A DNA stretch of 43,536 nucleotides from an uncultured Candidatus Saccharibacteria bacterium (GTDB lineage Bacteria > Patescibacteriota > Minisyncoccia > Minisyncoccales > CAZJYT01), in assembly GCA_964550325.1 (NCBI GenBank), contig CAZJYT010000002.1, positions 1 to 43,536 on the forward strand, written 5' to 3'. Under the pieces are notes generated by a model, which ran no database searches, was not told the origin of the DNA, and saw nothing but the letters and a program-made list of their open reading frames with translations. Position 1 is the stretch's first letter; every line of letters starts with the position of its first letter. The translations under genes were made by a program, and so were the position numbers. Below are positions 1,238-37,884 of the stretch, in pieces.

Positions 1238-2611
1238 ATGAAAATAGAAGTTGATCCAAAAATTTTCAGGGCTTATGATATCAGGGGGGTTTATCCTTCT
1301 GAGATTAATGAAAAGATTGCCTTTTTGGTTGGAAGAGCCTTTGTCAAATTTTTAAAGAAAGGAGCTCAAAAAAGAGAAATAATAAAAATTGGAATTGGAA
1401 GAGACAACCGAATTTCTTCTCCCTATCTTTTAAGGGGATTAAAAAGGGGTATTTTAACTGAGAGGGTAAAGGTTTTTGATTTTGGGCTTTCTACTACTCC
1501 TCTTTTTTATTTTGGAATTTCTCATTTGAAATTGACAGGTGGAATTCAGATTACAGCCAGCCATAATCCTCCTCAATACAATGGATTCAAGATAGTAAAA
1601 AAGGGAGCTTTTCCAGTGGGCGAAGCAAGTGGATTGGAGGAGATAAAAAAACTAGTCTTTTCTGAGGAAACCTTGGAAAGAGAGAGAAAAGGAAATTCAA
1701 TTAAAAAGAAAATTTTAAAAGAATATATAGATTTCAATCTTAAAGAATTTAACCTAAAAGACTTTCTTCCATTAAGGATTGTGGTAGATACCGCCAATTC
1801 TGTTTCTGGAATTTTGTTTCCAAGACTTTTTGAAAAGACCAAAATAAAAATTTTCCATCTCTTCTCGGAATTAGACGGAGCCTTCCCAAACCATCCTCCA
1901 GATCCTTTGGTGAAAGAAAATCTAAAAGTGATTCGTGAAAGGGTAAAAAAAGAAAAGGCTACCCTTGGGGTGGCATTTGATGGAGATGGCGACAGGATAA
2001 TATTCATTGATGAAAAAGGGGAAATCATTTCTGGGGATCTAATTTTGGCTTTTTTGGCAAAAACAATTTTGGAAAAAAAGCCAAGGCAAAAAATTGCTTA
2101 TGATATTCGCTCAAGTAATATCGTCCCAGAAACTATAAAGAGATATGAAGGAATCCCTTTGGTGAGCAGAATTGGACATTCTTTTATCAAACAAAAAATG
2201 AGAAAAGAAGATATAGTTTTTGGAGGAGAACTTTCTGGACACTATTATTCAAAAAATCATTATTTTTGCGAAGCTCCTATCTTTGTTTTGCTAAAGATTA
2301 TAGAGAAAATTTCTCAAACAAAAAAACCTCTCTCAGAATTAATAAAGCCCTTTAAAAAATATTTCCATTCTGGAGAGATTAACTTTAAAACAGAAAAAAA
2401 AGAAGAGATAATAAGTGAACTGGAAAGAAGATACAAAAAAGGAAGAGTTACAAAGTTAGATGGAATTAGGATTGATTTTCGAGACTGGTGGTTTTTGGTA
2501 AGACCCTCCAACACTGAGCCTGTCTTAAGATTAGTAGTAGAGGCAAAGGAAAAAAGGCTATTGAAAGAAAAGATAAGAGAGGTAAAAAAAATAATTCAAT
2601 CATTTTTATAA
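1238..2611 (+). CDS. Phosphomannomutase/phosphoglucomutase (alpha-D-phosphohexomutase family)
   Basis: Active-site loop TASHNPPQYNGFK, metal loop FDGDGDR and sugar loop GGELSGH are present. Confidence 0.85.
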   Translation: MKIEVDPKIFRAYDIRGVYPSEINEKIAFLVGRAFVKFLKKGAQKREIIKIGIGRDNRISSPYLLRGLKRGILTERVKVFDFGLSTTPLFYFGISHLKLTGGIQITASHNPPQYNGFKIVKKGAFPVGEASGLEEIKKLVFSEETLERERKGNSIKKKILKEYIDFNLKEFNLKDFLPLRIVVDTANSVSGILFPRLFEKTKIKIFHLFSELDGAFPNHPPDPLVKENLKVIRERVKKEKATLGVAFDGDGDRIIFIDEKGEIISGDLILAFLAKTILEKKPRQKIAYDIRSSNIVPETIKRYEGIPLVSRIGHSFIKQKMRKEDIVFGGELSGHYYSKNHYFCEAPIFVLLKIIEKISQTKKPLSELIKPFKKYFHSGEINFKTEKKEEIISELERRYKKGRVTKLDGIRIDFRDWWFLVRPSNTEPVLRLVVEAKEKRLLKEKIREVKKIIQSFL

Positions 2612-3687
2612 TCTCCTATTATTAAGAAATTGTCTCCAAATCTCTTAAAAGAGAGCTTTTGAAAATAAAAGGCTTCTCTTAGTGTCTTTGCTCCTTCTCC
2701 AGAAACAGCAGAAACAGCATTTCTCCCCCCAATAATGATAGGGGAATAAAAGGCGTAAATCCTATCTACTATTTTTTCATCAAAAAAGCTCCCAATTGTT
2801 TCACCTCCTCCTTCTACCAATATACTGATAATTTCTCTTTTCCATAAATCCTCCAAAAGCCTTGAGATAGAAAATTTTGCTCTCTGATAAAGAAGATATG
2901 GAATTTTTAATTTTTCTATTTTCTTTAGTTTTTCTCTTTTAGCAAATTTACTAATTACCAAAATTACATTATTTTTAGTCAGAACATTACTCTTTAAGGG
3001 AATTTTTAAAAAGGGGTCTAAAATAATTCTAATTGGATCTCTCTTCCCTTTCTCTCTCACTCCCAAATGTGGATCATCTTCAATGATGGTATTTACTCCC
3101 ACCAAAATTGCCTGATAAAAAAGTCTTAACTTTTTGCCATAATTTCTTGCTTTTTCGTTGGTAATCCATTTTGAGACTTTTAACTTGGTAGCAATCTTAC
3201 CATCTAAGCTGGAAGCAAATTTTATTGCTACAAAGGGTCTTTTCTTTTCCCAAAAGGTGAAATATCCTTCATTTAAAGCCTTGGCAGGCTTTTCCAAAAG
3301 CCCCACCTTTGTCTCAATATTGGCTTTTTTTAATATTTCAATTCCTTTTCCATTTACCTTAGGGTTGGGATCTAAAGTAGAGCAAACAACCCTTTTAATT
3401 CCTGCCCTTATAATTTCTCTTACACAGGGAGGAGTTTTACCAAAATGACAACAAGGTTCTAAATTAACATAGAGAGAGGCTCCTTTTGGACTTTCTTTTG
3501 TTGAATTTAAAGCTGAAATCTCTGCATGGGGAAAACCAAATTTTTTATGATATCCCTTTCCAATTATTCTTCCATTTTTGACAATTACTGCCCCCACCAA
3601 GGGATTGGGAAAGGTGTGATTTAGTCCCCTTTTTGCCAATTTCAAGCACTCCTTCAAAAAGAAAATGTCTTTTTCTTCTTCAGACAT
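2596..3687 (-). CDS. ribD: Bifunctional riboflavin biosynthesis deaminase/reductase RibD
   Basis: Deaminase zinc motifs HAEISAL and PCCHFGKTPPC, followed by a C-terminal reductase domain. The ATG overlaps the ribBA stop (ATGTCTGA). Confidence 0.9.
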   Translation of the reverse strand: MSEEEKDIFFLKECLKLAKRGLNHTFPNPLVGAVIVKNGRIIGKGYHKKFGFPHAEISALNSTKESPKGASLYVNLEPCCHFGKTPPCVREIIRAGIKRVVCSTLDPNPKVNGKGIEILKKANIETKVGLLEKPAKALNEGYFTFWEKKRPFVAIKFASSLDGKIATKLKVSKWITNEKARNYGKKLRLFYQAILVGVNTIIEDDPHLGVREKGKRDPIRIILDPFLKIPLKSNVLTKNNVILVISKFAKREKLKKIEKLKIPYLLYQRAKFSISRLLEDLWKREIISILVEGGGETIGSFFDEKIVDRIYAFYSPIIIGGRNAVSAVSGEGAKTLREAFYFQKLSFKRFGDNFLIIGDYKND

Positions 3688-4897
3688 TTTTGATTAAATG
3701 ACCCAATTTTTCTTTTTTAGCTTTTAGATATTTTTTGTTTTGGAGATTAAGACACTCTATCGGAATTCTCTTTACTACTCTTATCCCTCCTTTCTCTAAT
3801 TCTGAGATTTTCTGAGGATTGTTGGTTAAGATTTCAATTTTTTTAATATTTAAATCTTTTAAAATATCTACTGCCATCTGATAGTCTCTAGCGTCTGGGG
3901 GTAAGTTTAATAACAAGTTTGCTTTGACAGTGTCTATTCCTTTTTCTTGAAGAGAGTAAGCCCTTATCTTGTTTACCAATCCTATTCCTCTTCCTTCTTG
4001 ATTGAGATAGATTAAAACTCCTTTTTTTCTCTTTTTAATCAACTGGAAACTCCTTTCTAATTGCTCTCTGCAGTCACATTTTAAAGAAAAAAATACCTCT
4101 CCTGTTAGGCATTGGGAATGGATTCTCACTAAAATGGGTTCTTTTGGGTTTATTTTCTCTTTTTCATAGATTAGAGCTAAGTGCTCTTTTCCATCAACTG
4201 CCCTATAAACCCGTAAAAGAAATTCCCCATATTTTGTAAAGAGTTTTGACTCTGCTTCTTTTAAAATGCTTTTTGTTCTGGGATAAGTGAGGGGATGGAT
4301 TTTAAGATATTCAACTATCTCATTGATTGTTAAGATAGGAATTTTAAATTTTTGAGAAAATCTTTTCAATTGAGAAAAGTTTGCAGGATTCCCTTTTTCA
4401 TTAAGGACCTCGCATAAGACAGCGCAAGGAGAAAGTTTAGCCATTCTCATCAAATCTACTCCCGCTTCAGTGTGCCCCCTTCTCTCTAACAATCCCTTAT
4501 CCCTTGCTAAAAGTGGGAAAACATGACCTGGTCTCACTAAATCCTCTGCTCGAGATTTGGGATCAGCCAAAACCTTAATCGTCTCTGCCCTATCCTTGGT
4601 AGATATTCCAAAGGAGCTGACATTTTTACTATCACAGCTAATGGTAAATTGTACTTTTGTCTTCTCAGTCGTTGAAAGAGGTGGAACCATCAAGGGTAAT
4701 TTCAGTCTGAGAGCTTTTTCTTTAGTAATAGCGGTGCAGATTATCCCCCGACAGTTTTTAAGTAAAAAATTGACCTTGTCAGGGGTTACCTTCTCTCCGG
4801 CAAAAATGACATCCCCCTGATTTTCTCTCTTTGGATCATCAACAACAATTACCATCTTTCCTTCTCTCAGTCTTTCAATTGCAAAATCAACCTTCAT
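3680..4897 (-). CDS. ribBA: Bifunctional 3,4-dihydroxy-2-butanone-4-phosphate synthase / GTP cyclohydrolase II
   Basis: N-terminal DHBP synthase pattern (VVDDPKRENQGD, RGHTEA). C-terminal GCH-II pattern (HSQCLTGEVF, CDCREQL, NQEGRGIGL). Confidence 0.9.
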   Translation of the reverse strand: MKVDFAIERLREGKMVIVVDDPKRENQGDVIFAGEKVTPDKVNFLLKNCRGIICTAITKEKALRLKLPLMVPPLSTTEKTKVQFTISCDSKNVSSFGISTKDRAETIKVLADPKSRAEDLVRPGHVFPLLARDKGLLERRGHTEAGVDLMRMAKLSPCAVLCEVLNEKGNPANFSQLKRFSQKFKIPILTINEIVEYLKIHPLTYPRTKSILKEAESKLFTKYGEFLLRVYRAVDGKEHLALIYEKEKINPKEPILVRIHSQCLTGEVFFSLKCDCREQLERSFQLIKKRKKGVLIYLNQEGRGIGLVNKIRAYSLQEKGIDTVKANLLLNLPPDARDYQMAVDILKDLNIKKIEILTNNPQKISELEKGGIRVVKRIPIECLNLQNKKYLKAKKEKLGHLIKNV

Positions 4898-5325
4898 ATT
4901 TTTTCTAAAATCTCTATCATCTTGAGGCAGGTCTCTACAGCCTCCCTTGCTCTTTTTTTAATCCTTTCCTTTGCCTGTTTTTTAGAAAAGACAGACAACA
5001 CCTCAAAAATAACAGGAATCTCAAAATCATAAGCCACCCTTTGACAACCTTTCACGCACTCTATTGAAACCTGTTCAAAATGAAAGGTCTCTCCTTTTAA
5101 AACACAGCCTAAAGCAATTAGGGCCTTATATTTTTTCTTTTTTGCCAATTTTTTTGCCAAAAGAGGAATTTCTAAAGCTCCCGGCACCCTGAAAATATCA
5201 ATTTCTTTTTCTGAAATTCCTTTTTCTTTAAAAAGAGAAAGACACTCTTTTAAAAGAGGGCTGGTTATCTCTTTCCAATAGGTAGCCACTAAAATGGCAA
5301 GGGGAAGGTTTTTTTTCTTTTTCAT
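4894..5325 (-). CDS. ribH: 6,7-dimethyl-8-ribityllumazine synthase
   Basis: The size and the VPGALEIP and KGETFHFE motifs fit. It has ATGA overlaps with both neighbouring rib genes. Confidence 0.85.
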   Translation of the reverse strand: MKKKKNLPLAILVATYWKEITSPLLKECLSLFKEKGISEKEIDIFRVPGALEIPLLAKKLAKKKKYKALIALGCVLKGETFHFEQVSIECVKGCQRVAYDFEIPVIFEVLSVFSKKQAKERIKKRAREAVETCLKMIEILEKI

Positions 5326-5906
5326 CTTTTTGATAAAAATTTTTTTATATATTTTGCAATTATATCTATCTCAACATTCACTTTATCGCCCGCCTTTGTA
5401 AATTGAAGCTGGGTATTCTTAAAGGTATGGGGAATTATTCCCACTGTAAAAAAATTATCTTTCACTTCAATTACAGTTAAAGAAATGCCATTTACAGCTA
5501 CCCCTCCCTTCTCCACTAAATACCTTAAAATTCTTTTTGGCACCTTAAATTTAAAAATCCAGCTATTTTTTTCTTTTTTGATTGAAAGTATCTCACCTTT
5601 TCCATCCACGTGTCCTTGGACAAAGTGCCCTGACAAAAAAGAATTGGGAGTAAGGGGTTTTTCTAAATTGACATAATCCCCAATTTTTAAATCAGCCAAA
5701 TTTGTCTTTTTTAATGTTTCTGGCATTACCTCCACCGAAAAGGTATTTTTTTGGGGAGGAGAAACCAATGTTAAGCAAACTCCATTGACTGCCACACTAT
5801 CTCCCTTTTTAAGATTCTTTAAAAAATCTTTTTGAGTGGAAAATGTAAAAAAGGAGTTTTTTATTTTTTCTAATTTTCCCAAATGGGTGATAATTCCAGT
5901 AAACAT
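5322..5906 (-). CDS. ribE: Riboflavin synthase alpha chain
   Basis: MFTGII N-terminus, with two lumazine-binding repeats (VAVNGVCLT and VAVNGISLT). Confidence 0.9.
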   Translation of the reverse strand: MFTGIITHLGKLEKIKNSFFTFSTQKDFLKNLKKGDSVAVNGVCLTLVSPPQKNTFSVEVMPETLKKTNLADLKIGDYVNLEKPLTPNSFLSGHFVQGHVDGKGEILSIKKEKNSWIFKFKVPKRILRYLVEKGGVAVNGISLTVIEVKDNFFTVGIIPHTFKNTQLQFTKAGDKVNVEIDIIAKYIKKFLSKR

Positions 5907-5947: not shown

Positions 5948-6085
5948 AAATCCTCTTCCTTCTCCCTTCCCGACTTTACGGTCGGCTCTGGAATTCCACC
6001 AGCTCCACCCTCCTAAAAATTTTTAGAAGGGCTCGTGGGCTTTCACCACCGATTGGGGAATTTCACCCCACCCCGAAGGAAGCCT
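5948..6085 (-). promoter_or_regulatory. FMN riboswitch (RFN element)
   Basis: The minus strand reads CUUCGGGGUGGGGUGAAAUUCCCCAAUCGGUGGUGAAAGCCCACGAGCC...GGUGGAAUUCCAGAGCCGACCGUAAAGUCGGGAAGGGAGAAGGAAGAGG. This matches the conserved RFN core blocks and sits upstream of the rib operon. Confidence 0.9.
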
Positions 6086-6094
6086 TTATACTTT

Positions 6095-6123
6095 TTAATA
6101 TCAAAATTGAAAATCTTTGTCAA
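6095..6123 (-). promoter_or_regulatory. Candidate sigma70-type promoter of the rib operon (TTGACA-17-TATTAA)
   Basis: On the minus strand, TTGACA lies at 6118-6123 and overlaps the trpS stop codon. TATTAA lies at 6095-6100, which places the start site just before the riboswitch. Confidence 0.45.
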
Positions 6124-7103
6124 TTTATTGGTAAACCAATTTTTTCTTTTACTTCAAAAATAGTCTCTTTAGCAATCGCTTGAGCCTTTTCTTTTCCTTC
6201 CTTCAAGATTCCTTTGATAAATTCTTTTCTTTTTAAAAATTCTTCTCTTTTTTTTCTAAAGGGTTCTAATTTTTTTATCACTACCTCTGCTAATTTTTGC
6301 TTAAACTCTACATAGGTTTTATTTTCAAACTCTTTTTCTATTTTCTCAATAGGGAGTTGAGTACAAAGAGAATAGAGGGTCAAAAGATTGGAAATTCCAG
6401 GCTTTTTTAAAGGATGGTATCTGATCTCTCTTCCAGAATCAGTAACTGCACTTTTAATTTTTTCTCTTATTTCTTCTGGAGAGTCAAAAATACCAATACA
6501 TCCTCTGGGATCCTCTGTCTTTGACATTTTTTTGTGGGGATTTTGCAAAGACATAATTTTCTCTCCCTTTTCAGACAAAAGAATTTCTGGGATTTTAAAC
6601 ACCTTTCCAAATCTTCTGTTAAATCTCCGAGCAAGCTCTCTTGTAAATTCTAAATGCTGTTTTTGATCAATTCCCACTGGTACTAACTCTGTCTTGTAAA
6701 GCAAGATATCAGCAGCCATCAAAAGAGGATAATTTAGAAGCCCAGCATTTACATATTCAGGATGCTTCTTAGATTTTTCTTTAAACTGGGTCATTCCTTT
6801 TAACTCACTTAAGGGAGAAATGGTTCCCAAAATCCAAGCTAATTCAGTATGCTCTTTCACTTGGGACTGAATGAAAAGAATAGACTTCTTGGGATCTATC
6901 CCTGCTGCCAAAATGGCAATTGCCAGTTCTAAAATATTTTTTTTGAGTTTTTCGGGACTAAAGGGAGTAGTAATTGCATGGAGATCTACAATACAAAAAA
7001 CACATTCCTTTTCCTCTTGAAGTTTTACCCACTGCGCAATTGCTCCAAAATAATTTCCAAGATGAAGATCCCCGGTTGGTCTAATTCCACTAAATACCCT
7101 CAT
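6120..7103 (-). CDS. trpS: Tryptophan--tRNA ligase
   Basis: HIGH-type motif (TGDLHLGNY) and KMSKT motif. I start it at MRVFSGIRPTG (ATG 7101-7103). The 22 extra residues in the track ORF read into the repeat element. Confidence 0.9.
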   Translation of the reverse strand: MRVFSGIRPTGDLHLGNYFGAIAQWVKLQEEKECVFCIVDLHAITTPFSPEKLKKNILELAIAILAAGIDPKKSILFIQSQVKEHTELAWILGTISPLSELKGMTQFKEKSKKHPEYVNAGLLNYPLLMAADILLYKTELVPVGIDQKQHLEFTRELARRFNRRFGKVFKIPEILLSEKGEKIMSLQNPHKKMSKTEDPRGCIGIFDSPEEIREKIKSAVTDSGREIRYHPLKKPGISNLLTLYSLCTQLPIEKIEKEFENKTYVEFKQKLAEVVIKKLEPFRKKREEFLKRKEFIKGILKEGKEKAQAIAKETIFEVKEKIGLPIN

Positions 7104-7145
7104 AAGTAAGATGTATTTACTAACCAATTTGGCAACAAATCTCCT

Positions 7146-7307
7146 GAGGCATCTTATCTCGGGGAGCACGGAGTCGCCTTAAGTGCTGAAATAGGGAGTT
7201 TATTTACAGGCGCTCCTATACCTCGCCGAGCCTTACAGAGTCCCTACTGAAATACAATGCCTCTACTCGGGCTCGGCTGCGGTATGCTCCCCGAGACAAG
7301 ATGCCTC
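7146..7307 (+). repeat. Structured GC-rich repeat, copy 1 (core; degenerate arms extend to about 7112..7338)
   Basis: It starts GAGGCATCTTATCTCGGGGAGCA and ends TGCTCCCCGAGACAAGATGCCTC. The interior is near-identical to the copies at 9092, 14123 and 25864. Confidence 0.9.
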
Positions 7308-7334
7308 AAAAAAATTATCAAGTAAAATATTATA

Positions 7335-9014
7335 CTACACCTCAATCACCACTGGTAATATCATGGGTCTTCTTTGAGTTCTTCGAAACAGAAACTTTCC
7401 AATTTTCTCTCTAATTTCGTTTTTAATATACATCCAATTTACTGCTCTTCCAGATCCCGTTGCTCTTTCTACAATGTTAATAACTTTTTTCCTTGTATCT
7501 CTTAATAAATCCTTGGACTCCTTCAAATATACAAAGCCCCTTGAGATGATATCTGGAGAGGTTCTTACTCTTCCTGTCTGTTTATCTACCACCGTAATAA
7601 TCACAAACATTCCATCCTTCACCAACATCTGTCTATCTCTTAAAACTACCTCCTCTACGTCTCCAATTCCCAGTCCATCAACCATGATATAATTCGAGGG
7701 AACAGTTTCTTTTTCTATGGTAATTTTATTTTTTGTTAAAGTAATCACCTGTCCATTTTCAGCAATAACAATATTTTTTTCGGGAATTCCTACCTCCCTT
7801 GCTATTTCACCATGTAAGACCAACATTGAATATTGCCCATGAATAGGCATAAAGAATTTTGGCTTCATTATCTCAATCATTTTCTTTAATTCCTCTCTCC
7901 GGGCATGACCTGAGGCATGGATATCCATCATTTTGTAATGAATAACCTTAGACTTTTGGCGGTAAAGTGCATCTTTTAAATTTTGAACTGTTCTTTCATT
8001 TCCTGGAACAACTGAAGAGGAGAAAATCACTATATCTTCCTTTTTCAATTTCAAATGAGGATATTCCCTATTGGCTATTCGCATCAAAATTGCCTCTGAT
8101 TCTCCTTGAGCGCCGGTACATAACAAGGTAATCTTATCATCAGGAAATTTATGAATCTCTTTTGGTTTAATAAAGGTACCCTCTTTTGCCCGGATATATC
8201 CCCAAATTTTACAAAGTTCTACATTCTTCCTCATAGTGTAACCATCAACCGCAACTTTTCTGTGGTATTTTTCAGAAAGAGAAATAATCTGCTGAATCCG
8301 ATTTATTAAAGAGGCAAAAGTAGCAGCAATAATCTTACCTTTGGCAGATTTAAATATCTTATCTAAATTTTGGAAAATTGCCCTTTCAGAAAGAGAATGT
8401 CCCTCCTCTTCGGCACCGGTAGAGTCTGAAAGCAAAAGTAAGATCTTTTCTTTTGAGATTGCCTCTAATTTTTTAAAGTCAGTAGGTAAATCATAAACGG
8501 GATCCTCATCAAATTTAAAATCAGAGGTATGCAAAATATTCCCAATAGGGGTTCTAATAATCAATCCTAAGTTGTCGCTAATATTATGATTTTGTCTAAA
8601 AAATTCAATTTCAAAGGGCGGTAGATCTACAATGGAACCGGATCTTACCTCTTCAATATTTAGCTTTGGTTGACCAGGGAAGTCTTCCTGACGAGTTAAA
8701 ATTATCGCTTTTGTTAATCTGGAAGCAAAAAAGGGATATTGATGAAAGGGAAATCTGTAAAGCAAATAAGGAATAGCTCCAATGTGATCATAATGGCCAT
8801 GAGTAAAAACTACTCCCAAGATATCCTTTTCTCTTCCTTTTAAATAAGAAATATTGGGAATAAGATAATCTATCCCTGGCATCGTTTCTTCTGCCATTCT
8901 TAAAACCATATCAACAATCAAGATCTTCTTTCTATATTCAAAAAGAAGCATATTTCTTCCTACCTCACCAAGACCACCTAAGGGAATAATTCTTAAATTA
9001 GAAACCTTAGCCAT
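7335..9014 (-). CDS. rnj: Ribonuclease J (metallo-beta-lactamase / beta-CASP RNase)
   Basis: HGHYDHIG motif, a beta-CASP region and the C-terminal domain length (559 aa) typical of RNase J. Confidence 0.9.
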   Translation of the reverse strand: MAKVSNLRIIPLGGLGEVGRNMLLFEYRKKILIVDMVLRMAEETMPGIDYLIPNISYLKGREKDILGVVFTHGHYDHIGAIPYLLYRFPFHQYPFFASRLTKAIILTRQEDFPGQPKLNIEEVRSGSIVDLPPFEIEFFRQNHNISDNLGLIIRTPIGNILHTSDFKFDEDPVYDLPTDFKKLEAISKEKILLLLSDSTGAEEEGHSLSERAIFQNLDKIFKSAKGKIIAATFASLINRIQQIISLSEKYHRKVAVDGYTMRKNVELCKIWGYIRAKEGTFIKPKEIHKFPDDKITLLCTGAQGESEAILMRIANREYPHLKLKKEDIVIFSSSVVPGNERTVQNLKDALYRQKSKVIHYKMMDIHASGHARREELKKMIEIMKPKFFMPIHGQYSMLVLHGEIAREVGIPEKNIVIAENGQVITLTKNKITIEKETVPSNYIMVDGLGIGDVEEVVLRDRQMLVKDGMFVIITVVDKQTGRVRTSPDIISRGFVYLKESKDLLRDTRKKVINIVERATGSGRAVNWMYIKNEIREKIGKFLFRRTQRRPMILPVVIEV

Positions 9015-9091
9015 AGTTGGGAATGGTAATTTTTAAAATTGTTTGGACTATCCTAACCATTTCAGTAACAACTCCTAATAATTTCTTTACC

Positions 9092-9252
9092 GAGGCATCT
9101 TGTCTCGGGGAGCACGGAGTCGCCTTAAGTGCTGAAAGAGGAAGTTTATTTTCAGGCGCTCCTATACCTCGCCGAGCCTTACAGAGTGCCTACTGAAATA
9201 CTATCTTTCTTTTGGGCTCGGCTGCGGTATGCTCCCCGAGACAAGATGCCTC
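9092..9252 (+). repeat. Structured GC-rich repeat, copy 2 (core; arms about 9045..9287)
   Basis: Perfect 23-nt terminal inverted repeat GAGGCATCTTGTCTCGGGGAGCA / TGCTCCCCGAGACAAGATGCCTC. My hand count gives 85 G+C in 161 nt. Confidence 0.9.
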
Positions 9253-9298
9253 TACTAATTCGTTACTAAATTGGTTAGTAAATGCATTTTATTTTTAG

Positions 9299-9385
9299 TG
9301 CGGATGGTGGGATTTGAACCCACACGCCCAAAAGCTGGGCATCAGCTCCTGAAGCTAACGCGTCTTCCAGTTCCGCCACATCCGC
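9299..9385 (-). tRNA. tRNA-Leu (anticodon CAG)
   Basis: The reverse complement GCGGATG...TTCAGGA...long variable arm...GGGTTCAAATCCCACCATCCGCA folds as a class II cloverleaf. The anticodon loop is UUCAGGA and no CCA is encoded. Confidence 0.9.
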
Positions 9386-13583: not shown

Positions 13584-14088
13584 AAATTAAACCCGTAGGT
13601 AAAATTTTAATAGAAGTAGTAGAATTTTTGCTTTGGAGAATAATCTCTGCCAGGGTACTGGTTGTGTGGTTTACTTCAGTAATGGGATCAGGCGGCAAGA
13701 AAATAACAGTTAAGGGAGAGGAAGGAGAGAGAGAAGAAATTTTAACCTCCTTTTCAATTTCAACTTTCTTTATTTTCTCTGGGAAACCATTACAAGGGTT
13801 TCCAACTTTATCATAATCTCCGTCGCTATCACAGTCTGCAAATAGGGTGTACTCTGAATGGGAAAGATTAAAATACACCCCGTATCCGCGAGGAATTATT
13901 CCCCTAAATTCTTTAGTGGCAATAGCCATTTCTTGGACCCTTTTAATATCTTGAACTATTTTATTAGCGGTTCTTTGTAAATTTATTTTTACCTCTCCTT
14001 GTTTGTAGATTTGAAATGAAATTGAACTCATAACAGCAATTATCAAAACCACAAGGAGCATTTCAACAAGAGTAAAGCCTTTTTCCAT
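13573..14088 (-). CDS. Prepilin-type minor pilin (GspH/FimT-like)
   Basis: The N-terminus is MEKGFTLVEMLLVVLIIAVMSSI. It is the first gene of the minor-pilin/rodA operon. Confidence 0.75.
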   Translation of the reverse strand: MEKGFTLVEMLLVVLIIAVMSSISFQIYKQGEVKINLQRTANKIVQDIKRVQEMAIATKEFRGIIPRGYGVYFNLSHSEYTLFADCDSDGDYDKVGNPCNGFPEKIKKVEIEKEVKISSLSPSSPLTVIFLPPDPITEVNHTTSTLAEIILQSKNSTTSIKILPTGLIYAE

Positions 14089-14122
14089 AATCTTTACTAT
14101 ACTAAGTAATAATTTTTTTATC

Positions 14123-14283
14123 GAGGCATCTTATCTCGGGGAGCACGGAGTCGCCGTAAATACTGAAATAGGGAGTTTATTTCCCGGGCGCTCCTATACG
14201 TCGCCGAGCCTTACAAAGTTCCTACTGAAATACAATTTTCTACTGGGCTCGGCTGCGGTATGCTCCCCGAGACAAGATGCCTC
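14123..14283 (+). repeat. Structured GC-rich repeat, copy 3 (core; arms about 14092..14319)
   Basis: It has the same termini and interior as copies 1 and 2, and lies between the pilD stop and the minor-pilin start. Confidence 0.9.
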
Positions 14284-14323
14284 TCCTAATTTATTATCAA
14301 ATTGGTTAGTAAATATACAATAA

Positions 14324-15085
14324 TCAAAATAAATTCAAATACCATCCAAAAATCTTCTCACCAATGAAAACTGCAATTAAACCTCCTGTAACTAAGAAAG
14401 GTCCTAAAGGAAGTTCTGATCTTAAGGTCTTTTTCTTCAAAAGAATTAGCCCTATTCCTATTATAGCACCAAAGAAAAAGGAAAAAAAGAAGGCAATTAA
14501 AAAATTTGGAAATCCAGAGACTAAACCTATTAAGAATCCCAATTTTATATCTCCAAATCCTATCCATTTTCCTTGAGAGATAAAAAATATTAAAAAAAAG
14601 AAACCACTTATCATTACTCCACTTAAAAAGCTTAAGAGGAAATTGGGAGAAAGAAAAAGATTGAAAATTAAAGAAATAATGATGGGAGGATAAACTATCT
14701 TGTCGGGAATTAAGTAATATTTGGCATCAAAAACAAAGATTAAAATGAAAAAAGAGAAAATTATCCAATAATAAATTAGAGTAATAAAACCAAAAGAAGA
14801 AAACTTCTTAAAAGCTAAAAAGAACAAAATCCCGGTAATGAATTCAACAAAAGGATACCAAAAAGAAATTCTCTGGTGACAATATCTACATCTTCCCTTT
14901 AAATAAAAAAAACCAAATAAAGGGATTAGCTCTAAAAAGGAAAGGGGATGCTTGCAATGGGGACAAAAAGACCTTCCCCTAATAAAGCTTTTTTTTGTCT
15001 CTAATCTATAAATTACACAGTTTAAAAAAGAACCTATTAAAGTACCTAAAATAAAACTAAAGATAGTAAACACTATAAAAAACAC
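14324..15085 (-). CDS. pilD: Prepilin peptidase / N-methyltransferase (A24 family)
   Basis: Polytopic membrane protein with the CPHC...CRYC zinc motif and the GFGDIKLG aspartyl-protease motif. The apparent start is GTG (15083-15085). Confidence 0.85.
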   Translation of the reverse strand: MFFIVFTIFSFILGTLIGSFLNCVIYRLETKKSFIRGRSFCPHCKHPLSFLELIPLFGFFYLKGRCRYCHQRISFWYPFVEFITGILFFLAFKKFSSFGFITLIYYWIIFSFFILIFVFDAKYYLIPDKIVYPPIIISLIFNLFLSPNFLLSFLSGVMISGFFFLIFFISQGKWIGFGDIKLGFLIGLVSGFPNFLIAFFFSFFFGAIIGIGLILLKKKTLRSELPLGPFLVTGGLIAVFIGEKIFGWYLNLF

Positions 15086-16908: not shown

Positions 16909-17976
16909 TTACTTTAATAGGTTTTGTAATTCCACAGGATCCAAGGAATAGACTAAAGCATTCTCTAAAGAGATCTCACCCTTTTTTACTAATTCAGCTA
17001 AAGAACGATTTAGAGAGATCATTCCTGTTTCTGCCGAGGTTTCGATTACCAAAGGAATTTCATGAATTTTATTTTCTCTAATTAAATTAGCCACAGCAGG
17101 AGTATTGATCATTATCTCGGTTGCTGGAATTAAACCTCCTTTTTCCCGAGGAATTAATCTTTGAGAAATTACTCCCAATAAAGAGCCTGATAACTGAGCC
17201 CTTATTTGGGCCTGCTGAAGAGAAGGGAAAGAGTTAACGATTCGGTGAATGGTCTGGGCAGCTGAGTTGGTGTGAAGGGTAGCAAAAACCAGGTGTCCAG
17301 TCTCAGCAGCAGTAATAGCGGTAGCCATTGTTTCAATATCTCTCATTTCTCCTACCATAATTACATCAGGATCCTGACGGAAGGTAGCGCGTAATGCTTT
17401 CGCAAAACTTTGAGTATCTTGATAAACCTCTCTTTGGTCAATAATACACTTATCTGGAGAAAATATATATTCAATAGGGTCTTCGATCGTTATAATATGC
17501 TCTGTTCTAGTATGATTTATCTCATCAATTAAGGCAGCTAAAGTAGTAGATTTACCATGGCTTGAGGGGCCAGTTACTAATACAAATCCTTGAGTAGGCT
17601 TGGTAAATTTATGAAGAATTGGAGGAAGATTTAATTCCTCAATGGTTCTAATTTTAGAAGTAATAACCCTTAAAGCGATACTAATGTTACCCTTTTCAAA
17701 AAAAACATTCGCCCTTAACCTAAATTTGTTTTCAAAATTAAAAGAAAAATCAATTTCTTTCTCTTTAGCAAACCGTTTAATCTGTTCCTCTGTCATTATT
17801 ACAAAAGCCAAAGCTTGAGTATCATCAGGAGAGAGAATCTCTTTTTGCTTTAGGAAAAACAGTTCTCTATTTATCCTTAAAATAGGAGGTTGACCTACTG
17901 AAAGATGAATATCAGAAGCTCCTTTAGCCAAAGCCTCCTCAATAAGTTCTTTAATCTCATTCTTATAATTTTTCAT
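16909..17976 (-). CDS. pilT: Twitching-motility retraction ATPase PilT
   Basis: 355 aa with Walker A GPSSHGKST, Asp box and Walker B (DPDVIMVGEMRD), and the AIRNLIRE-like helix ANLIRENKIHE. Confidence 0.9.
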   Translation of the reverse strand: MKNYKNEIKELIEEALAKGASDIHLSVGQPPILRINRELFFLKQKEILSPDDTQALAFVIMTEEQIKRFAKEKEIDFSFNFENKFRLRANVFFEKGNISIALRVITSKIRTIEELNLPPILHKFTKPTQGFVLVTGPSSHGKSTTLAALIDEINHTRTEHIITIEDPIEYIFSPDKCIIDQREVYQDTQSFAKALRATFRQDPDVIMVGEMRDIETMATAITAAETGHLVFATLHTNSAAQTIHRIVNSFPSLQQAQIRAQLSGSLLGVISQRLIPREKGGLIPATEIMINTPAVANLIRENKIHEIPLVIETSAETGMISLNRSLAELVKKGEISLENALVYSLDPVELQNLLK

Positions 17977-17986
17977 AAATTTGTAA

Positions 17987-19974: not shown

Positions 19975-19982
19975 TTTATTTT

Positions 19983-20486
19983 TTATTCATTATAATACAC
20001 CTTTAATTTCACATTGAAATCACTAAATTTTGCCTCTTCTGAAACAGAAAAAGAAATATGACTGATTTTAATTAACTTTTCACTGTTTTCCAACTCTGAG
20101 AGAAAATTTAGAAAAGATTCGTAATAGGGAGTTGAAAGAGAAAGAGTATAATCTATAGTGTTTTCTTTTTTATTTAAAGAATAACTATAATTTTTTAAAA
20201 TTAATCCCTTCCTCTTGCTGAGCCCTTCTAAATAATTTAAAAAGGAGAGTAAAGAAATAGGCTTTAGGGCAATATCTATTCTTTTTAATTGGTCAGAATA
20301 ACTATCAACCTTTTCTTTAAGAGAAAAAAGTTTTTCTCTGTATTGTGTTTGGAGCTGAAGCTCTTTCTTTTTAAGAAGAAGCTGTTGTCTTTTCTCTCTA
20401 TATTCTTGATATTTAGGCCAAACCAAAAATAATCCTATTAAGAAGCTTAGAATTATCATCAAAATTGCAGAAGTAGTTTTTTTCAT
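19983..20486 (-). CDS. pilO: PilO-like pilus alignment protein
   Basis: 167 aa with an N-terminal TM helix followed by a coiled coil, and positioned after the PilN-like gene. A GGGAG SD lies 7 nt upstream. Confidence 0.6.
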   Translation of the reverse strand: MKKTTSAILMIILSFLIGLFLVWPKYQEYREKRQQLLLKKKELQLQTQYREKLFSLKEKVDSYSDQLKRIDIALKPISLLSFLNYLEGLSKRKGLILKNYSYSLNKKENTIDYTLSLSTPYYESFLNFLSELENSEKLIKISHISFSVSEEAKFSDFNVKLKVYYNE

Positions 20487-24068: not shown

Positions 24069-25823
24069 TTACTCACTAATTACTCTCAACACCTCCTCAA
24101 TTGAGGTTATACCCTTAGCTGCTTTTACAAAACCGTCTTCCACCATGGTAAGCATACCCTCTTTCTTTGCCTGATTCTCAATCTCATCAGAGGTGGCATT
24201 TTTTATGATTAGTTCTTTTATACTCTCTGTAATTGGTAATGATTCATATATTCCAATTCTTCCCCGATATCCCTCTGGGCATTCTTTTGTAATTTTTGGT
24301 TTATAAAAGGGAATATCTTTTATGGTTTGATCTTTTTTAAGCAATTTTTCTTTTTTTAAAATATCTTCAATTCTTTTAAGACTGCAATACTTAGATAAGT
24401 CTTTTATCTCTGGCTCCTTTAAAAAATATCTCTCTCTTTCTGAGCAAAACCTTCTTACTAATCTTTGACCAATAATTAACCTAAGGGTAGAAGAAATAAG
24501 GAAGGGTTCTACCTTCATATCAATCAGTCTTGGAACAGCTCCAGCAGCATTATTAGTATGGAGGGTAGACAAAACTAAATGGCCGGTCAGGGCAGCATTT
24601 ATGGCTAAGGAAGCGGTCTCATTATCCCTAATCTCTCCTACCATAACTATATCAGGATCCTGTCTTAATAAGCTTCTTAATCCAGCTGAGAAGGTTAATC
24701 CAATTTTTGGATTGACCTGAGTCTGATTTATCCTTGGCATTCTATATTCTATTGGATCCTCAATGGTAGAAATATTCACTTGAGGAGTATTTAGGATTTC
24801 CAAGATGGAATACAGGGTAGTTGTTTTCCCAGAACCAGTAGGTCCTGTTACTAATATCATCCCAATAGGCTTTCTCAAATTTGTTTCCACCACCTCCAAG
24901 GCCCTTCCCCACAATCCTAAACCTTCTAAGGTATAACCCTTGCTAGTTTCTGGTAATATCCTCATTACAATTTTCTCTCCATCAAAGATTGGCAAGATAG
25001 AAACTCTAATTGAATATTTTTCATCTTCCAATTCAATTTTGAATCTCCCATCTTGGGGAAGCCTATGTTCATCTAATTTAAGATTGGATAGCACTTTTAT
25101 TCTTGCTACTACTCCCGAATGAACAGTTTTGGGTAAGACCATAGCATCGTGTAAAATTCCATCTATACGATAACGGACAATCAGTTCTTTTTCTTGGGGT
25201 TCAATGTGAATATCTGAAGCTCTTTGTAAAATAGCGTGTTTAATCAAGGTATCTACTATCCTTACAATAGGTAGCTCCTTGGCAATTTTCTGAAGTTCTG
25301 TTTTTTTCTCTTTTAATTCTGCTTCTTCTTTAGTGGTCTCAATTACTTTTATCTCTTTGTCAATAATTTCTCCAAACTCTACCTCTAAGGTTTTTTGATA
25401 CTGTCTTAATACATTTTTCAGGGATTCTGAAGTAGTTAATCTGGGAAGAATTCTCAAATGAGGATATCTTTTTTTAAGAAATTCAATTGTTCCCAAATCT
25501 TCGGGATCAAGCATTGCCACTTCTAAATTATTTTCTTTTTTTCTAAAAGCAACAATATTGTGCTTTCTGGCAATGGGTTCAGGAATAATCTTTAGAATCT
25601 CTGGAGGAATAACCTCTTTTTCCAAATTGACAAAAGGAATACCTAATATATAAGCTTTTAGCTTCACTAATTCATCTGAAGTCAAAATTCCTTCGGCAAT
25701 TAAAACATCATCTAATTTCTTCTGCTTCTCTTTTGCTTTCTCTAAACATTCATTAAATTTTTCTTCAGTAATCAAATTGGCATCTAATAAAAAAGATTTT
25801 AATTGTCCTGGCTCTACTCTCAT
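24069..25823 (-). CDS. Second PilB/GspE-family secretion ATPase
   Basis: 584 aa and paralogous to 17987..19708 (GPTGSGKTT, DPDIVMVGEIRD). It lacks the CxxC...CxxC zinc motif. Confidence 0.85.
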   Translation of the reverse strand: MRVEPGQLKSFLLDANLITEEKFNECLEKAKEKQKKLDDVLIAEGILTSDELVKLKAYILGIPFVNLEKEVIPPEILKIIPEPIARKHNIVAFRKKENNLEVAMLDPEDLGTIEFLKKRYPHLRILPRLTTSESLKNVLRQYQKTLEVEFGEIIDKEIKVIETTKEEAELKEKKTELQKIAKELPIVRIVDTLIKHAILQRASDIHIEPQEKELIVRYRIDGILHDAMVLPKTVHSGVVARIKVLSNLKLDEHRLPQDGRFKIELEDEKYSIRVSILPIFDGEKIVMRILPETSKGYTLEGLGLWGRALEVVETNLRKPIGMILVTGPTGSGKTTTLYSILEILNTPQVNISTIEDPIEYRMPRINQTQVNPKIGLTFSAGLRSLLRQDPDIVMVGEIRDNETASLAINAALTGHLVLSTLHTNNAAGAVPRLIDMKVEPFLISSTLRLIIGQRLVRRFCSERERYFLKEPEIKDLSKYCSLKRIEDILKKEKLLKKDQTIKDIPFYKPKITKECPEGYRGRIGIYESLPITESIKELIIKNATSDEIENQAKKEGMLTMVEDGFVKAAKGITSIEEVLRVISE

Positions 25824-25863
25824 TATAACTGTATTTGATAACTAATTTGGTAACGAATTAGTA

Positions 25864-26026
25864 GAGGCATCTTGTCTCGGGGAGCATACCGAGAGCTAAG
25901 CCCGAGAGGAAAATTGTATTTCAGTAGGAACTCTGTGAGGCTCGGCGAGGTATAGGAGCGCCTGTGAAATAAACTCCCTATTTCAGCACCTAAGGCGACT
26001 CCGTGCTCCCCGAGACAAGATGCCTC
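25864..26026 (-). repeat. Structured GC-rich repeat, copy 4, inverted relative to copies 1-3 (core; arms about 25830..26072)
   Basis: Its reverse complement aligns with copies 1-3 along its whole length, and both 23-nt termini are perfect. Confidence 0.9.
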
Positions 26027-26082
26027 GGTAAAGAAATTATTAGGAGCTGTTAATGAATCGGTTAGATAGGACATTATAATTT

Positions 26083-36491: not shown

Positions 36492-36569
36492 ATGGTTTTT
36501 CTCTTCTTTGAAAGAAAGGGGAAAAATCAGGAAAAGTTAGGAAAAATTAGGGGCGGGCACATTTCTGAT

Positions 36570-36598: not shown

Positions 36599-36606
36599 AA
36601 AAGTGT

Positions 36607-36828: not shown

Positions 36829-36833
36829 AATAG

Positions 36834-37874: not shown

Positions 37875-37884
37875 AGTCCTAGAT

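Follow-up and report, generated by a model that had tools for sequence, protein, structure and literature searches.

Several families of interspersed repeats are known which resemble the element described below in one respect or another. The Correia elements of Neisseria (CREE or NEMIS) are likewise short (~100–200 bp) non-coding MITEs with long inverted repeats and many intergenic copies, which form long hairpins when they are co-transcribed; their target duplication is TA. BOX elements of Streptococcus pneumoniae, which are composites of sub-modules, and ERIC/IRU of enterobacteria share with our element that they are modular interspersed intergenic repeats with stable transcript structures affecting mRNA fate. 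REP and REPIN sequences are GC-rich palindromes at 3' gene ends inside operons as well, and REP hairpins stabilise the upstream mRNA against 3' exonucleases, a role that we propose here too. Invertons finally contain a segment edged by ~20-bp inverted repeats which occurs in both orientations relative to fixed flanks, as it does here. For the Correia elements RNase III cleavage at the terminal inverted repeats (TIRs), outward promoters and inversion are described in PMC10969869 (Elbeyioglu et al. 2017 cited there).

The window, by which we mean the whole 43.5-kb stretch of DNA that was analysed, holds four GC-rich cores of ~161 nt each, edged by 23-nt inverted repeats. Three of them lie on the forward strand (copy 1, 7146–7307; copy 2, 9092–9252; copy 3, 14123–14283) and one on the reverse strand (copy 4, 25864–26026), and re-mapping placed all four where a first-pass annotation of the sequence had seen them. 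Their G+C content is 0.52–0.54 against 0.28–0.39 elsewhere in the window, and the earlier hand count for copy 2 (85 G+C in 161 nt, in AT-rich surroundings) was correct. The right arm of the inverted repeat reads TGCTCCCCGAGACAAGATGCCTC in all four copies and position 11 of the left arm is either G or A, a variant that had already been noticed, so that copies 2 and 4 have perfect 23-bp inverted repeats and copies 1 and 3 one A.C mismatch. The annotation had called these repeats perfect and terminal; they are real, but they are perfect in copies 2 and 4 only and they are internal to a larger unit. The number of four copies also applies to the window alone, whose 43.5 kb hold about one copy in every 11 kb, between essential genes. 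A scan of metagenomes gave 22 loci with the element and more loci were reached via spurious ORFs, making at least 25 distinct copies in total from Guaymas Basin and vent metagenomes, which have the element alone in common. A protein-database search with a spurious ORF gave three matches, which led to extra element loci and to no autonomous element.

That the repeat arose as a palindrome by chance or as an artefact of assembly, or that it is part of a known RNA or insertion sequence, is hardly conceivable, as the window contains the 21-mer GGCATCTTRTCTCGGGGAGCA eight times, two in each copy, where 100 shuffles gave an expectation of 0.00, and as the sequence of the element is identical in independent JGI and ENA assemblies; copy 4 is unchanged in three independent assemblies. 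The database searches also speak against such an origin. With Rfam 15 at the gathering threshold nothing overlapped any copy in the whole window, so the failure to assign the repeat to an Rfam family, at first a matter of inspection, now has a covariance-model search behind it; at E ≤ 10 copy 2 gave two chance matches only, both in the arms. A blastn search with the full unit gave no match in plasmid and phage collections, and the exact 21-mer had 0 matches in the GTDB representative genomes and IMG/VR.

The mobile unit measures ~243 bp (individual units ~225–245 bp) and ends in imperfect TIRs of ~25 nt within AT-rich arms (TGTAYTWNCTAACCAATTYRGTAAC). The degenerate outer inverted arms that had been suspected do exist, and the outer TIR arms TGTACTATCTAACCAATTCAGTAAC and GTTACCAAATTGGTTAGCAAATACA are present in every complete copy. 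The arms are asymmetric, with a spacer of 22 nt on one side and of 9 nt on the other side, and one flank type is the reverse complement of the other. Copy 2 (9044..9286, forward strand) is a complete unit of type A with the order long arm, core, short arm, and its arms match the family consensus. Its long (L-type) arm (9044..9091) is composed of the outer TIR TGGACTATCCTAACCATTTCAGTAAC and the 22-nt spacer AACTCCTAATAATTTCTTTACC, which carries the best-conserved arm motif, AATAATTTC; the mean pairwise identity of the left arm is 0.73, that of the AATAATTT stretch ~0.9. The core starts with the 5' arm of the internal inverted repeat, GAGGCATCTTGTCTCGGGGAGCA (9092..9114; identity across copies 0.967), ends with the 3' arm TGCTCCCCGAGACAAGATGCCTC (9230..9252; 0.985) and is followed by the short (R-type) arm (9253..9286; right-arm identity 0.77) with the 9-nt spacer TACTAATTC and the outer TIR GTTACTAAATTGGTTAGTAAATGCA. 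Copy 4 is also of type A, with the whole unit on the minus strand (25830..26073; long arm 26027–26073, core 25864–26026, short arm 25830–25863), and so is copy 3 (14093..14319, forward strand), in which a long arm with a ~16-nt internal deletion (14093–14122) precedes the core (14123–14283) and the short arm (14284–14319). Copy 1 (7112..7339, forward strand) is of type B, its core (7146–7307) being inverted relative to its arms when compared with copies 2, 3 and 4; the short arm lies at 7112–7145 and the internally deleted long arm at 7308–7339. Both arms are retained in copies 1 and 3, one arm of each being shortened by internal deletion. Independent deletions in either arm were considered and rejected, because the L-type TIR always occurs with the long spacer and the R-type TIR always with the short one. 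Arms away from a core, i.e. solo arms or core-less 'empty' MITEs, were found neither in the window nor in L001–L022.

The arms are flanked by AT-rich target-site duplications (TSDs) of 7–9 bp, for example CTTTAAA, AAACAAAA, CCCTTAAT, GGTTTATT, GATTATA and TTATAA(TG). The best exact flanking direct repeat had a mean length of 6.2 nt against 2.15 ± 0.52 nt for mismatched flanks (maximum of 3.7 in 200 permutations); among the 18 copies checked four have only a 4-nt match, which is near the permuted background, and two have none. No clear TSD was found at copy 2. With its unit of ~243 bp, its AT-rich arms with outer TIRs and its TSDs of 7–9 bp the element is a MITE, and the four repeats represent this small parasitic element in an uncultivated lineage of Paceibacteria (Patescibacteria) from hydrothermal sediment.

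The flanking genes in the window have housekeeping functions or belong to the type IV pilus. The left end of copy 1 is 8 nt from the start (7103) of a tRNA-synt_1b gene (TrpRS/TyrRS family) and its long-arm end overlaps the stop codon (7335–7337) of an RNase J gene (7335–9014, minus strand); copy 2 lies between the latter gene and a tRNA-Leu(CAG) gene (9298–9385, minus strand), copy 3 between a pilin-like gene (start 14088) and a prepilin peptidase gene (end 14324), and copy 4 between a PilB-type ATPase gene (24069–25823) and a response-regulator gene (26083–26460). In most copies the unit fills the intergenic gap to within ~0–35 nt, a few gaps being larger, and its orientation relative to the flanking genes is about 12:9 in a tally by eye. 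At copy 4 one TSD copy (25821..25828; CATTATAA on the plus and TTATAATG on the minus strand) includes the start codon of the ATPase gene and the second one (26072–26079) contains the duplicated ATG; the TSD proper may be only TTATAA, since 26072–26073 coincide with the terminal CA of the element. The duplicated ATG opens an ORF of 83 codons (26074..25823) that crosses the element and ends in TAATG, where its stop overlaps the ATPase start codon. Coding or translational read-through as a feature of the family was rejected, since a stop-free frame is present in only 5 of the 22 copies and is not common to them; indels shift the reading frame between copies, and there is no conserved ORF across the element.

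A transposase acting in trans would cut and paste the unit at its outer ends, and the insertions would land in the tiny intergenic spacers of the compact genome. Among the 42 window ORFs that were scanned against Pfam (a few ORFs of ≥60 aa lie outside this set) no transposase, integrase, reverse transcriptase or Cas protein was present, in agreement with the first-pass annotation, and an autonomous partner with matching TIRs was not found in ~0.3 Mb of this lineage.

The occurrence of the core both ways round relative to the asymmetric arms led to the distinction of types A and B. As an explanation two old subfamilies were rejected in favour of inversion, because both types are intermixed in the core tree (mean distances A-A 0.119, B-B 0.139 and A-B 0.130) and junction features are mixed in L010 and L020. 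The module has changed its orientation relative to the arms repeatedly, and such flips may arise via recombination or gene conversion through the 23-bp repeats, within or between copies. Same-locus flips or empty sites were not found, exact-protein look-ups giving only identical or same-orientation loci. Copy 4 (three assemblies) as well as L107/L108 and L110/L111 show one orientation per locus, where consensus assemblies can hide minority orientations, and a recombinase gene was not seen among the scanned window ORFs. In contrast to invertons, the two orientations are found at different loci and never at one locus, an invertase is not present nearby, and the segment is GC-rich without an evident promoter.

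For copy 2 we predicted a fold in which a 22-bp terminal stem (P1; 9092–9113 and 9231–9252) closes a three-way junction with two hairpins. P2 (9116..9162) has the stem GGAG-U-CGCC/GGCGCUCC in which one U is bulged, and its apical part is variable and AU-rich; P3 (9164..9230) has the base AUACC/GGUAU, the conserved CUCG...CUGCGG and the stem GCCGAGCC/GGCUCGGC, capped by a variable loop of ~35 nt. The folding energy is −87.2 kcal/mol (z = −9.7) and that of the opposite strand −84.0 kcal/mol (z = −9.9). A nested hairpin CTGAAA...TTTCAG, which had been postulated for the interior, pairs exactly in copy 2, but not in the other copies. We also considered a retron ncRNA (msr-msd) and rejected it: the architecture has a superficial likeness, but none of the copies lies next to a reverse-transcriptase gene, and the copies are many and dispersed.

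The mean pairwise identity of 17 copies is 0.73 and 0.77 for the left and right arm, 0.80 for the loops, 0.97 and 0.985 for the internal inverted repeats and 1.00 for the junction and the base of P3. Stems and junction are thus 92–100% identical between copies, against ~80% for the loops and only 73–77% for the transposon arms with their outer TIRs, and the differences between copies are gathered in the two apical loops, much as the earlier reading of a variable loop had suggested. This pattern is reversed relative to an ordinary MITE: purifying selection keeps the stems and the junction, and loops and transposon arms drift. Conservation is lowest in the outer TIRs, although a transposase should depend on them, and this counts against the reading as a composite MITE. 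The direction in which the host genes are transcribed makes no difference to how well stems and junction are conserved. The orthologous copies L107 and L108, whose flanks are 95% identical, differ at 15 sites, all of them outside the inverted repeats, the stems and the junction. In its P2 apical tract L107 is almost the same as L017b, a likeness of sequence that makes gene conversion between copies likely and weakens the orthologue pair as a test of selection in situ.

Distant homologues of the core were found in other Paceibacteria, as single insertions after rpoC and a recA-like gene. Those in L024, L045 and L055 were detected by nhmmer (E-values of 1.5e-15 to 8e-9) and score 109–133 bits with the covariance model, and a further one, in L077, was retrieved with the model although L077 had no part in its construction (82.6 bits, E = 2e-20). 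Their sequences differ and the three-way-junction fold is common to all four. Compensatory changes are present in 25 of the 33 base pairs and 97.8% of the cells are paired, in an alignment that was fitted to the model; none of 500 shuffles reached the observed level of covariation, and slid controls gave at most 8 pairs. Across the homologues 7 of the 8 modelled pairs of P2 are compensatory, as are 8 of the 13 pairs of helices 4 and 5 of P3. The internal three-way-junction module therefore predates the Guaymas MITE and exists with the same fold and a different sequence elsewhere in Paceibacteria. It had been reasoned that TSDs together with a lack of covariation would make the repeat an ordinary MITE; the TSDs were found, but the interior fold has been kept in distant genomes through many compensatory changes, so that only one half of this reasoning applies. 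In Rfam the four loci with distant homologues gave tRNAs only, and a loose regular expression for the junction, applied to 1.2 Mb of Paceibacteria loci, retrieved nothing but noise besides the four homologues already known. One IMG/VR match to a gapped pattern of the P3 stem (L106) was discarded as chance, being a GC-rich coding region with only 12.6 bits. The spurious ORFs across the distant homologues are too dissimilar to serve as search queries.

These homologues are not part of a MITE and are flanked by perfect target duplications of 35–55 nt. In the rpoC-linked copies one boundary is fixed 1–3 nt after the stop codon and the other is variable, and truncated non-MITE copies keep the end adjoining the fixed boundary. 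All five non-MITE copies are sense to the upstream gene, representing at most two or three independent events. The non-MITE homologues are similar to eukaryotic SINEs in being structured units, here of ~160 nt at the 3' ends of highly expressed genes, with target duplications of variable length (here 20–55 nt), one fixed boundary and truncated copies that keep the end next to it. It is conceivable, though rather doubtful, that the module is an independently mobile structured nucleic acid of a type so far undescribed from bacteria. The insertions at the 3' ends of rpoC and the recA-like gene would then be recent and independent and would show the pattern expected from target-primed reverse transcription of the module's antisense RNA, i.e. 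a bacterial SINE-like retroposon, and an integrase with a long ruler-like stagger would fit too. Capture of the module by a DNA transposon would have given rise to the Guaymas MITE, and the fold would be selected for the life cycle of the module itself or for an activity of ribozyme-like or protein-binding kind. SINE-like elements are, to our knowledge, not established in bacteria. Unlike SINEs, the module is not linked to a reverse transcriptase and has neither an A-rich nor another defined tail, and the MITE copies have TIRs and short uniform TSDs, which are typical of DNA transposition.

From the other described systems the element differs as well. By inspection its TIR and core are not similar in sequence to the 26-bp TIR of Correia elements, and its TSD is 7–9 bp and not TA as in Correia. 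The conserved inverted repeats of Correia are its termini, whereas here the internal 23-bp repeats are best conserved and the true termini least, and what inverts is a module inside the MITE and not the whole element. We know of no description of a three-way-junction interior with covariation in distant genomes for Correia. The resemblance to Correia is one in mode of action only. BOX elements are unrelated in sequence, occur in a different phylum and are without clear TIRs and TSDs, both of which the Guaymas element has, and conservation of a fold across genera with compensatory change is known to us neither for BOX nor for ERIC. REPs have only 20–40 nt and REPINs are doublets without TSDs, moved by HUH (RAYT) enzymes, whereas the Guaymas element has TIRs, TSDs of 7–9 bp and a branched fold of 160 nt; a RAYT/HUH (Y1) transposase gene was not seen in the sequence at hand.

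Taking the data together we consider it probable that the element is a composite non-autonomous MITE with an older structured module inside, which flips via its 23-bp repeats and which is co-transcribed as an RNA-level insulator. The inserted unit would be transcribed together with its neighbour genes, and its perfect duplex of 22–23 bp plus the junction could serve as insulator in the RNA, either as a substrate of RNase III and/or as a barrier to exonucleases including the 5'-exonucleolytic RNase J. Such a role would resemble that of Correia, ERIC and REP elements, and it would account for the tolerance of the element at operon junctions as well as for the selection on pairing in both orientations. 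The MITE copies are not classical terminators because no U-tract follows the stem, and a promoter/terminator scan gave no terminator at the copies. The alternatives offered by the first-pass annotation, a Correia-like MITE or a structured RNA module at operon junctions, are both partly right at once.

Conservation that is independent of orientation fits a structure-only role as RNA, and a role at the DNA level equally well. To the latter we assign a smaller but real probability: as folded single-stranded DNA or as a cruciform the module would be the site in cis at which a recombinase or transposase acts, in mobility, in inversion or in both, and its structure would be selected because only intact copies move or recombine, similar to the subterminal hairpins of IS200/IS605, to integron attC or to invertase sites. 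Such a site could account for stems and junction being conserved irrespective of host transcription direction, for both strands folding equally well and for the flipping of the module between its own 23-bp repeats, which are far better conserved than the outer TIRs; the TSDs, however, are located at the outer arms and not at the module, and the three loci with several samples or strains show one orientation only, with nothing to suggest fast switching. The perfect direct repeats of the target that surround the non-MITE homologues indicate DNA transactions at the module itself, but elements of the IS200/IS605 type make no TSD and are without TIRs, and neither a HUH transposase nor a tyrosine or serine recombinase nor an integron integrase was found among the scanned window ORFs. 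One specific strand is moreover suggested by a U.G pair that is kept in 4 of 5 lineages and by the excess of G.U over A.C in the modelled helices (39 against 5, with 26 of the G.U from one conserved pair). In the outer part of the 23-bp stem of the MITE copies, however, every one-sided change gives A.C on the forward strand of the core, so that the wobble evidence is mixed.

We regard it as very unlikely that the ~160-nt module is a multi-copy small RNA gene that acts in trans and is expressed from its own promoter, for which the conserved AATAAT box 7–9 nt upstream of the module in the long arm would be the candidate. The AATAATTT stretch is indeed the best conserved one of the arms and a similar TTAATAATTTTAC precedes the distant homologue in L077 by the same distance, but the homologues after rpoC are without such a box, and in type B copies, which are equally conserved, it faces the opposite strand of the module. 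Loop motifs common to the distant homologues (AAUUNAUUYYC in P2, AAU(A/U)CAA and UUCUUGG in P3, all by eye) would suit a trans-acting RNA as well; nevertheless a matching −35 element and a terminator are missing and promoter-like sites are not enriched (69 against 58 ± 7.7 expected).

In a targeted full-text literature search no MITEs or structured repeats described from Patescibacteria/CPR were found. The presence of a MITE in the tiny and gene-dense genome of a member of this phylum means that active or recently active mobile DNA is still carried there, and that hairpins of 240 bp inside operons are tolerated, or used, by such reduced genomes. In its interior the element behaves as a functional molecule would: the fold is kept in dozens of insertions while the transposon ends decay, which makes the module a candidate for a new family of structured RNA (or structured DNA) in a phylum from which few non-coding RNAs have been described. 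All genomes of the candidate phyla radiation (CPR) can be searched with the covariance model from this analysis. Flipping through the 23-bp repeats would add a second case to the inversion known from Correia, this time from an unrelated phylum, and the long target duplications at the non-MITE copies may point to an uncharacterised mechanism of insertion.

The four repeat cores lie at 7146-7307 (copy 1), 9092-9252 (copy 2, the copy under study) and 14123-14283 (copy 3) on the forward strand and at 25864-26026 in inverted orientation (copy 4), exactly where the first-pass annotation had placed them. The 21-mer GGCATCTTRTCTCGGGGAGCA occurs eight times in the window, twice per copy, with no occurrence expected from 100 shuffles. 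The right arm of the 23-nt repeat bounding each core does not vary among these copies and the left arm carries G or A at position 11, so that the perfect inverted repeats previously ascribed to every copy are present in copies 2 and 4 (23 bp), while copies 1 and 3 have one A.C mismatch each. The cores are, as had been noted by hand count for copy 2, GC-rich in an AT-rich window (G+C of 0.52-0.54 versus 0.28-0.39). Copy 2 is predicted to fold into a 22-bp terminal stem (P1) closing a three-way junction with two hairpins, P2 and P3 (-87.2 kcal/mol, z = -9.7), and its complementary strand folds nearly equally well (-84.0, z = -9.9). The sequence had not been assigned to any Rfam motif, and Rfam searches of the window at the gathering threshold, of copy 2 at E<=10 (no meaningful match) and of the loci with distant homologues described below likewise gave no match to the module.

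Using the 21-mer as query a metagenome scan returned 22 loci, two of which are the window itself, and the element is the sole sequence that the remaining loci share with the window. Including extra loci found with a spurious ORF crossing copy 4, at least 25 distinct copies were recovered. With all copies aligned so that their core interiors point the same way, the sequences next to the cores also proved to be conserved and to fall into two types which are reverse complements of each other, type A with a long arm at the 5' end of the core and type B with the long arm at its 3' end. The long arm is TGTACTATCTAACCAATTCAGTAAC plus the 22-nt spacer AACTCCTAATAATTTCTTTACC, the short arm is the 9-nt spacer TACTAATTC plus GTTACCAAATTGGTTAGCAAATACA, and their outer 25 nt are inverted repeats of one another; no arms without a core were found. 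AT-rich direct repeats are located directly outside the arms, e.g. CTTTAAA, AAACAAAA, CCCTTAAT, GGTTTATT and GATTATA, with a mean best exact match of 6.2 nt compared to 2.15 +/- 0.52 nt (maximum 3.7, 200 permutations) when left and right flanks from different copies were paired. These repeats are target-site duplications, about 7-9 bp long. The 23-nt repeats, which the first-pass annotation had taken as termini, are internal, as the arms with their outer inverted repeats and the target-site duplications lie outside them, and it is the larger unit of ~243 bp that is by structural definition a MITE, one of the two explanations offered there. Complete units are copy 2 (9044-9286, type A) and copy 4 (25830-26073, reverse strand, type A), and the long arm has an internal deletion in copy 1 (7112-7339, type B) and copy 3 (14093-14319, type A). 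The limited sequence at hand yielded no autonomous partner.

Most units take up the intergenic space so fully that ~0-35 nt are left to the neighbouring ORFs, a few leave more, and in several cases the target-site duplication includes the downstream start codon. The orientation relative to neighbouring genes is about 12:9 (counted by eye) and there is no conserved reading frame across the element. An 83-codon ORF (26074-25823, reverse strand) starts at the ATG duplicated by the copy 4 insertion, spans the whole copy and stops in a TAATG overlapping the start codon of a PilB-type ATPase gene, which could preserve translational coupling at this locus alone; an ORF through the element as a family feature was rejected, the frame being open in 5 of 22 copies. 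As many metagenome contigs start or stop within the element (L006, L013, L014, L018, L105), the element breaks short-read assemblies and its copy number per genome is therefore probably well above the recovered count.

The window encodes housekeeping genes (a riboflavin operon, a class-I TrpRS/TyrRS-family tRNA synthetase, RNase J, UvrA, RtcB and a partial 16S rRNA), a large type IV pilus cluster and toxin-antitoxin-like genes. The reported absence of transposase, integrase, reverse transcriptase and Cas proteins was borne out by a Pfam scan of 42 window ORFs, including all but a few of those of 60 aa or more. The nearest match of the RNase J among 185,579 GTDB species representatives is 76% identical, and its relatives are all Patescibacteria of the Paceibacteria/Nealsonbacteria group. 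Parts of the window are matched exactly by contigs from the JGI samples Ga0190363 and Ga0190361 and from ENA assemblies, and the source labels of related contigs name Guaymas Basin sediment and hydrothermal-vent metagenome. An FMN riboswitch (5953-6084, reverse strand, 108 bits) precedes a complete riboflavin operon encoding a lumazine-binding-domain protein (5322-5906), DMRL synthase (4894-5325), a DHBP synthase/GTP cyclohydrolase II fusion (3680-4897) and RibD (2596-3687), a pathway not to be taken for granted in a reduced Patescibacterium. The type IV pilus cluster, within which copies 3 and 4 are positioned, contains three paralogous T2SSE/PilB-type ATPase genes (16909-19708 and 24069-25823, DNA repeat families D5 and D6) along with PilM, T2SSF, a prepilin peptidase and several pilins. 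A defence or toxin-antitoxin-like cluster (35761-38202) comprises a HEPN and nucleotidyltransferase (MNT) pair (35761-36491), an AbiEii-type nucleotidyltransferase toxin (37239-37874) and DUF6922 (37885-38202). The RtcB RNA ligase gene (30424-31866, reverse strand, 567 bits), found in the same window as RNase J, may be relevant for RNA end-healing if the hairpins are cleaved.

In both types of copies the L-type and R-type TIR variants are constant partners of the long and short spacer, respectively. This fixed pairing shows that types A and B differ by having the core inverted with respect to the arms, and it rules out independent arm deletions as the source of the difference. Types A and B are fully intermixed in a neighbour-joining tree of core interiors (mean distances A-A 0.119, B-B 0.139, A-B 0.130), almost every B copy has an A copy as nearest neighbour, and two copies (L010, L020) show mixed junction-proximal bases; from the intermixing and the mixed bases it follows that the core orientation changed many times. 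At three loci covered by several samples or strains the orientation is unchanged, so we regard this as evolutionary flipping and not as demonstrable phase variation. The apical P2 tract of L107, a copy with an orthologue in L108, is near-identical to that of L017b, which suggests that copies have exchanged sequence by gene conversion. Conversion tracts ending within the 23-bp repeats, whose sequence is identical when read from either end, would also account for the flips, and efficient RecA-dependent exchange in E. coli needs a minimum of about 23 bp. Correia elements have likewise been reported to invert (PMC10969869). In three copies (L016 1270-1292, L021 948-970, L006 162-184) one arm of the 23-nt repeat carries a 4-nt micro-inversion, CGAG to CTCG, of the kind expected from template switching within a palindrome.

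Among 17 copies of the window lineage the mean pairwise identity is 0.73 in the long arm, 0.77 in the short arm and 0.80-0.81 in the loops, and reaches 0.905-0.965 in the P2 stem, 0.92 in the P3 3' strand, 0.967 and 0.985 in the 23-nt repeats and 1.00 in the junction plus P3 base. In a normal MITE the opposite is seen, the termini being conserved and the interior free to vary. The orthologues L107 and L108, whose flanks are 94.6-96.1% identical, differ at 15 of 241 positions, of which 13 fall in loops and two in arms, with repeats, stems and junction identical, a test that taken alone is likely weakened by patchy gene conversion. Loops and arms have diverged to a similar degree, so the conserved stems cannot be put down to blanket homogenisation, and purifying selection on pairing is the simplest reading.

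A profile HMM built from 25 cores was run on 80 Paceibacteria loci (1.2 Mb) taken from the vicinity of RNase J and matched L024, L045 and L055 (E-values 1.5e-15 to 8e-9) as well as a truncated core copy in L027. A covariance model scored the first three with 109-133 bits and detected one more complete copy, the fourth, in L077 (82.6 bits, E = 2e-20), which did not contribute to the model and is free of the lean of the alignment towards it. These distant homologues have little sequence in common beyond the junction and are predicted to adopt the identical three-way junction fold. Examples of compensatory change are found in the terminal stem, where GAGGCATCTTGTCTC / GAGACAAGATGCCTC of the MITE copies is replaced by CAGAACTGA / TCAGTTCTGC or GGCGAATCG / CGATTCGCC, in P2 (GGAGUCGCC / GGCGCUCC by GCAGUCAGC / GCUGCUGC, GGCGUCGGC / GCCGCGCC or GCCAUUGGG / CCCAUGGC) and in P3 (GCCGAGCC / GGCUCGGC by GCCAAACAU / AUGUUUGGC or GGCAGGCU / AGCCUGCC). 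The covariation that the first-pass annotation had proposed to look for appears in an alignment of 29 sequences, with 97.8% of cells paired and both-sided changes in 25 of 33 pairs, values that lean towards the model to which the alignment was fitted; none of 500 shuffles scored as high, and shifting the structure by 1-3 columns left no more than eight such pairs. The diverged MITE lineage L012 adds GGAG/CUCC to GAAG/CUUC and ACC/GGU to AUC/GAU. Conserved unpaired features are the junction linkers J12 (AC) and J23 (U), a bulged U in P2 and CUCG...CUGCGG at the P3 base. Judged from sequence comparison and modelled folds, the core is an older conserved structure than the MITE.

The rpoC 3' end is present in 42 of the 80 loci and carries the module in only four of them; many module-free ends have an ordinary terminator hairpin followed by a U-run. 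Module carriers are scattered in the RNase J tree and close relatives have the same site without the module, indicating that the modules outside the MITE lineage are insertions. Perfect direct repeats of target DNA flank them in L077 (35 nt, 14494-14753, intergenic, recA-like/ssb-like genes), L024 (37 nt, 13720-14012, rpoC 3' end including the stop codon) and L055 (55 nt, 14674-15013, rpoC 3' end, with a truncated second copy of the module behind it), L027 has 20 nt at 90% around the truncated module (19981-20076) and L045 a 7-nt repeat only (by eye). In rpoC-linked copies the boundary at the module 5' end is fixed 1-3 nt past the stop codon and the other one is variable, and truncated copies (L055, L027 and the L024 leader) retain the 5' part beside the fixed boundary. 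Such long repeats and boundaries would be expected if the antisense strand had undergone target-primed reverse transcription, and a long-stagger integrase or hairpin-stimulated slippage could equally be the source of this pattern. A different long palindrome with arms of ~23 bp (TTGCTTAGCTAAGCTAAGCAACT), enclosing a terminator-like hairpin, occupies ~130 nt directly after the rpoC stop codon in L079 (reverse strand), and in Paceibacteria hairpin elements may have landed at the rpoC 3' end repeatedly. L098 has two near-identical GC-rich structured segments of ~175 nt (1738-1913, reverse strand, and 6041-6216, forward strand) ending in a tRNA-like 3' half (GTTCGAATCCTGTCGG), which may represent tRNA genes interrupted by an intron or by an inserted element.

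With respect to the strand on which the core acts, a U.G pair kept in four of five lineages, the excess of G.U over A.C among the modelled pairs (39 vs 5) and the sense orientation of all non-MITE copies to their upstream gene count towards one specific strand. Against a one-strand reading, a single pair supplies 26 of the 39 G.U, every single-sided change in the outer part of the 23-bp stem is an A.C on the same strand, and the conservation of MITE copies is independent of the strand transcribed by the host. On this mixed evidence the RNA role of the core is taken as an inference, and a serious rival is that the core serves at the DNA level as a site of recombination or transposition. If the RNA role holds, a polycistronic transcript carrying the perfect 22-23-bp duplex, a textbook RNase III substrate, could be cut by this enzyme and the duplex would act as a barrier to 3' exonucleases and to the 5'-exonucleolytic RNase J. 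By analogy, such a role would have precedent in Correia (PMC10969869), ERIC and REP elements. A promoter-driven small-RNA gene is unlikely because the long-arm AATAAT box, although conserved, is directed at one core strand in A copies and at the other in B copies, and because promoter-like sites are not enriched.

Correia/CREE, ERIC, BOX and REP are the nearest known systems in their mode of action, but they are unrelated in sequence to the ~243-bp element and its target-site duplication differs from theirs; REP-type elements possess neither TIRs nor TSDs, whereas the element has both. Membership in any of them was rejected on these differences in sequence, TSD and TIRs, and targeted full-text literature searches found no paper describing a MITE in Patescibacteria. 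It seems to us rather improbable that the module is a mobile structured nucleic acid of a categorically new type. The ~243-bp element is a new MITE family, and its conserved three-way-junction module deserves a family model of its own.
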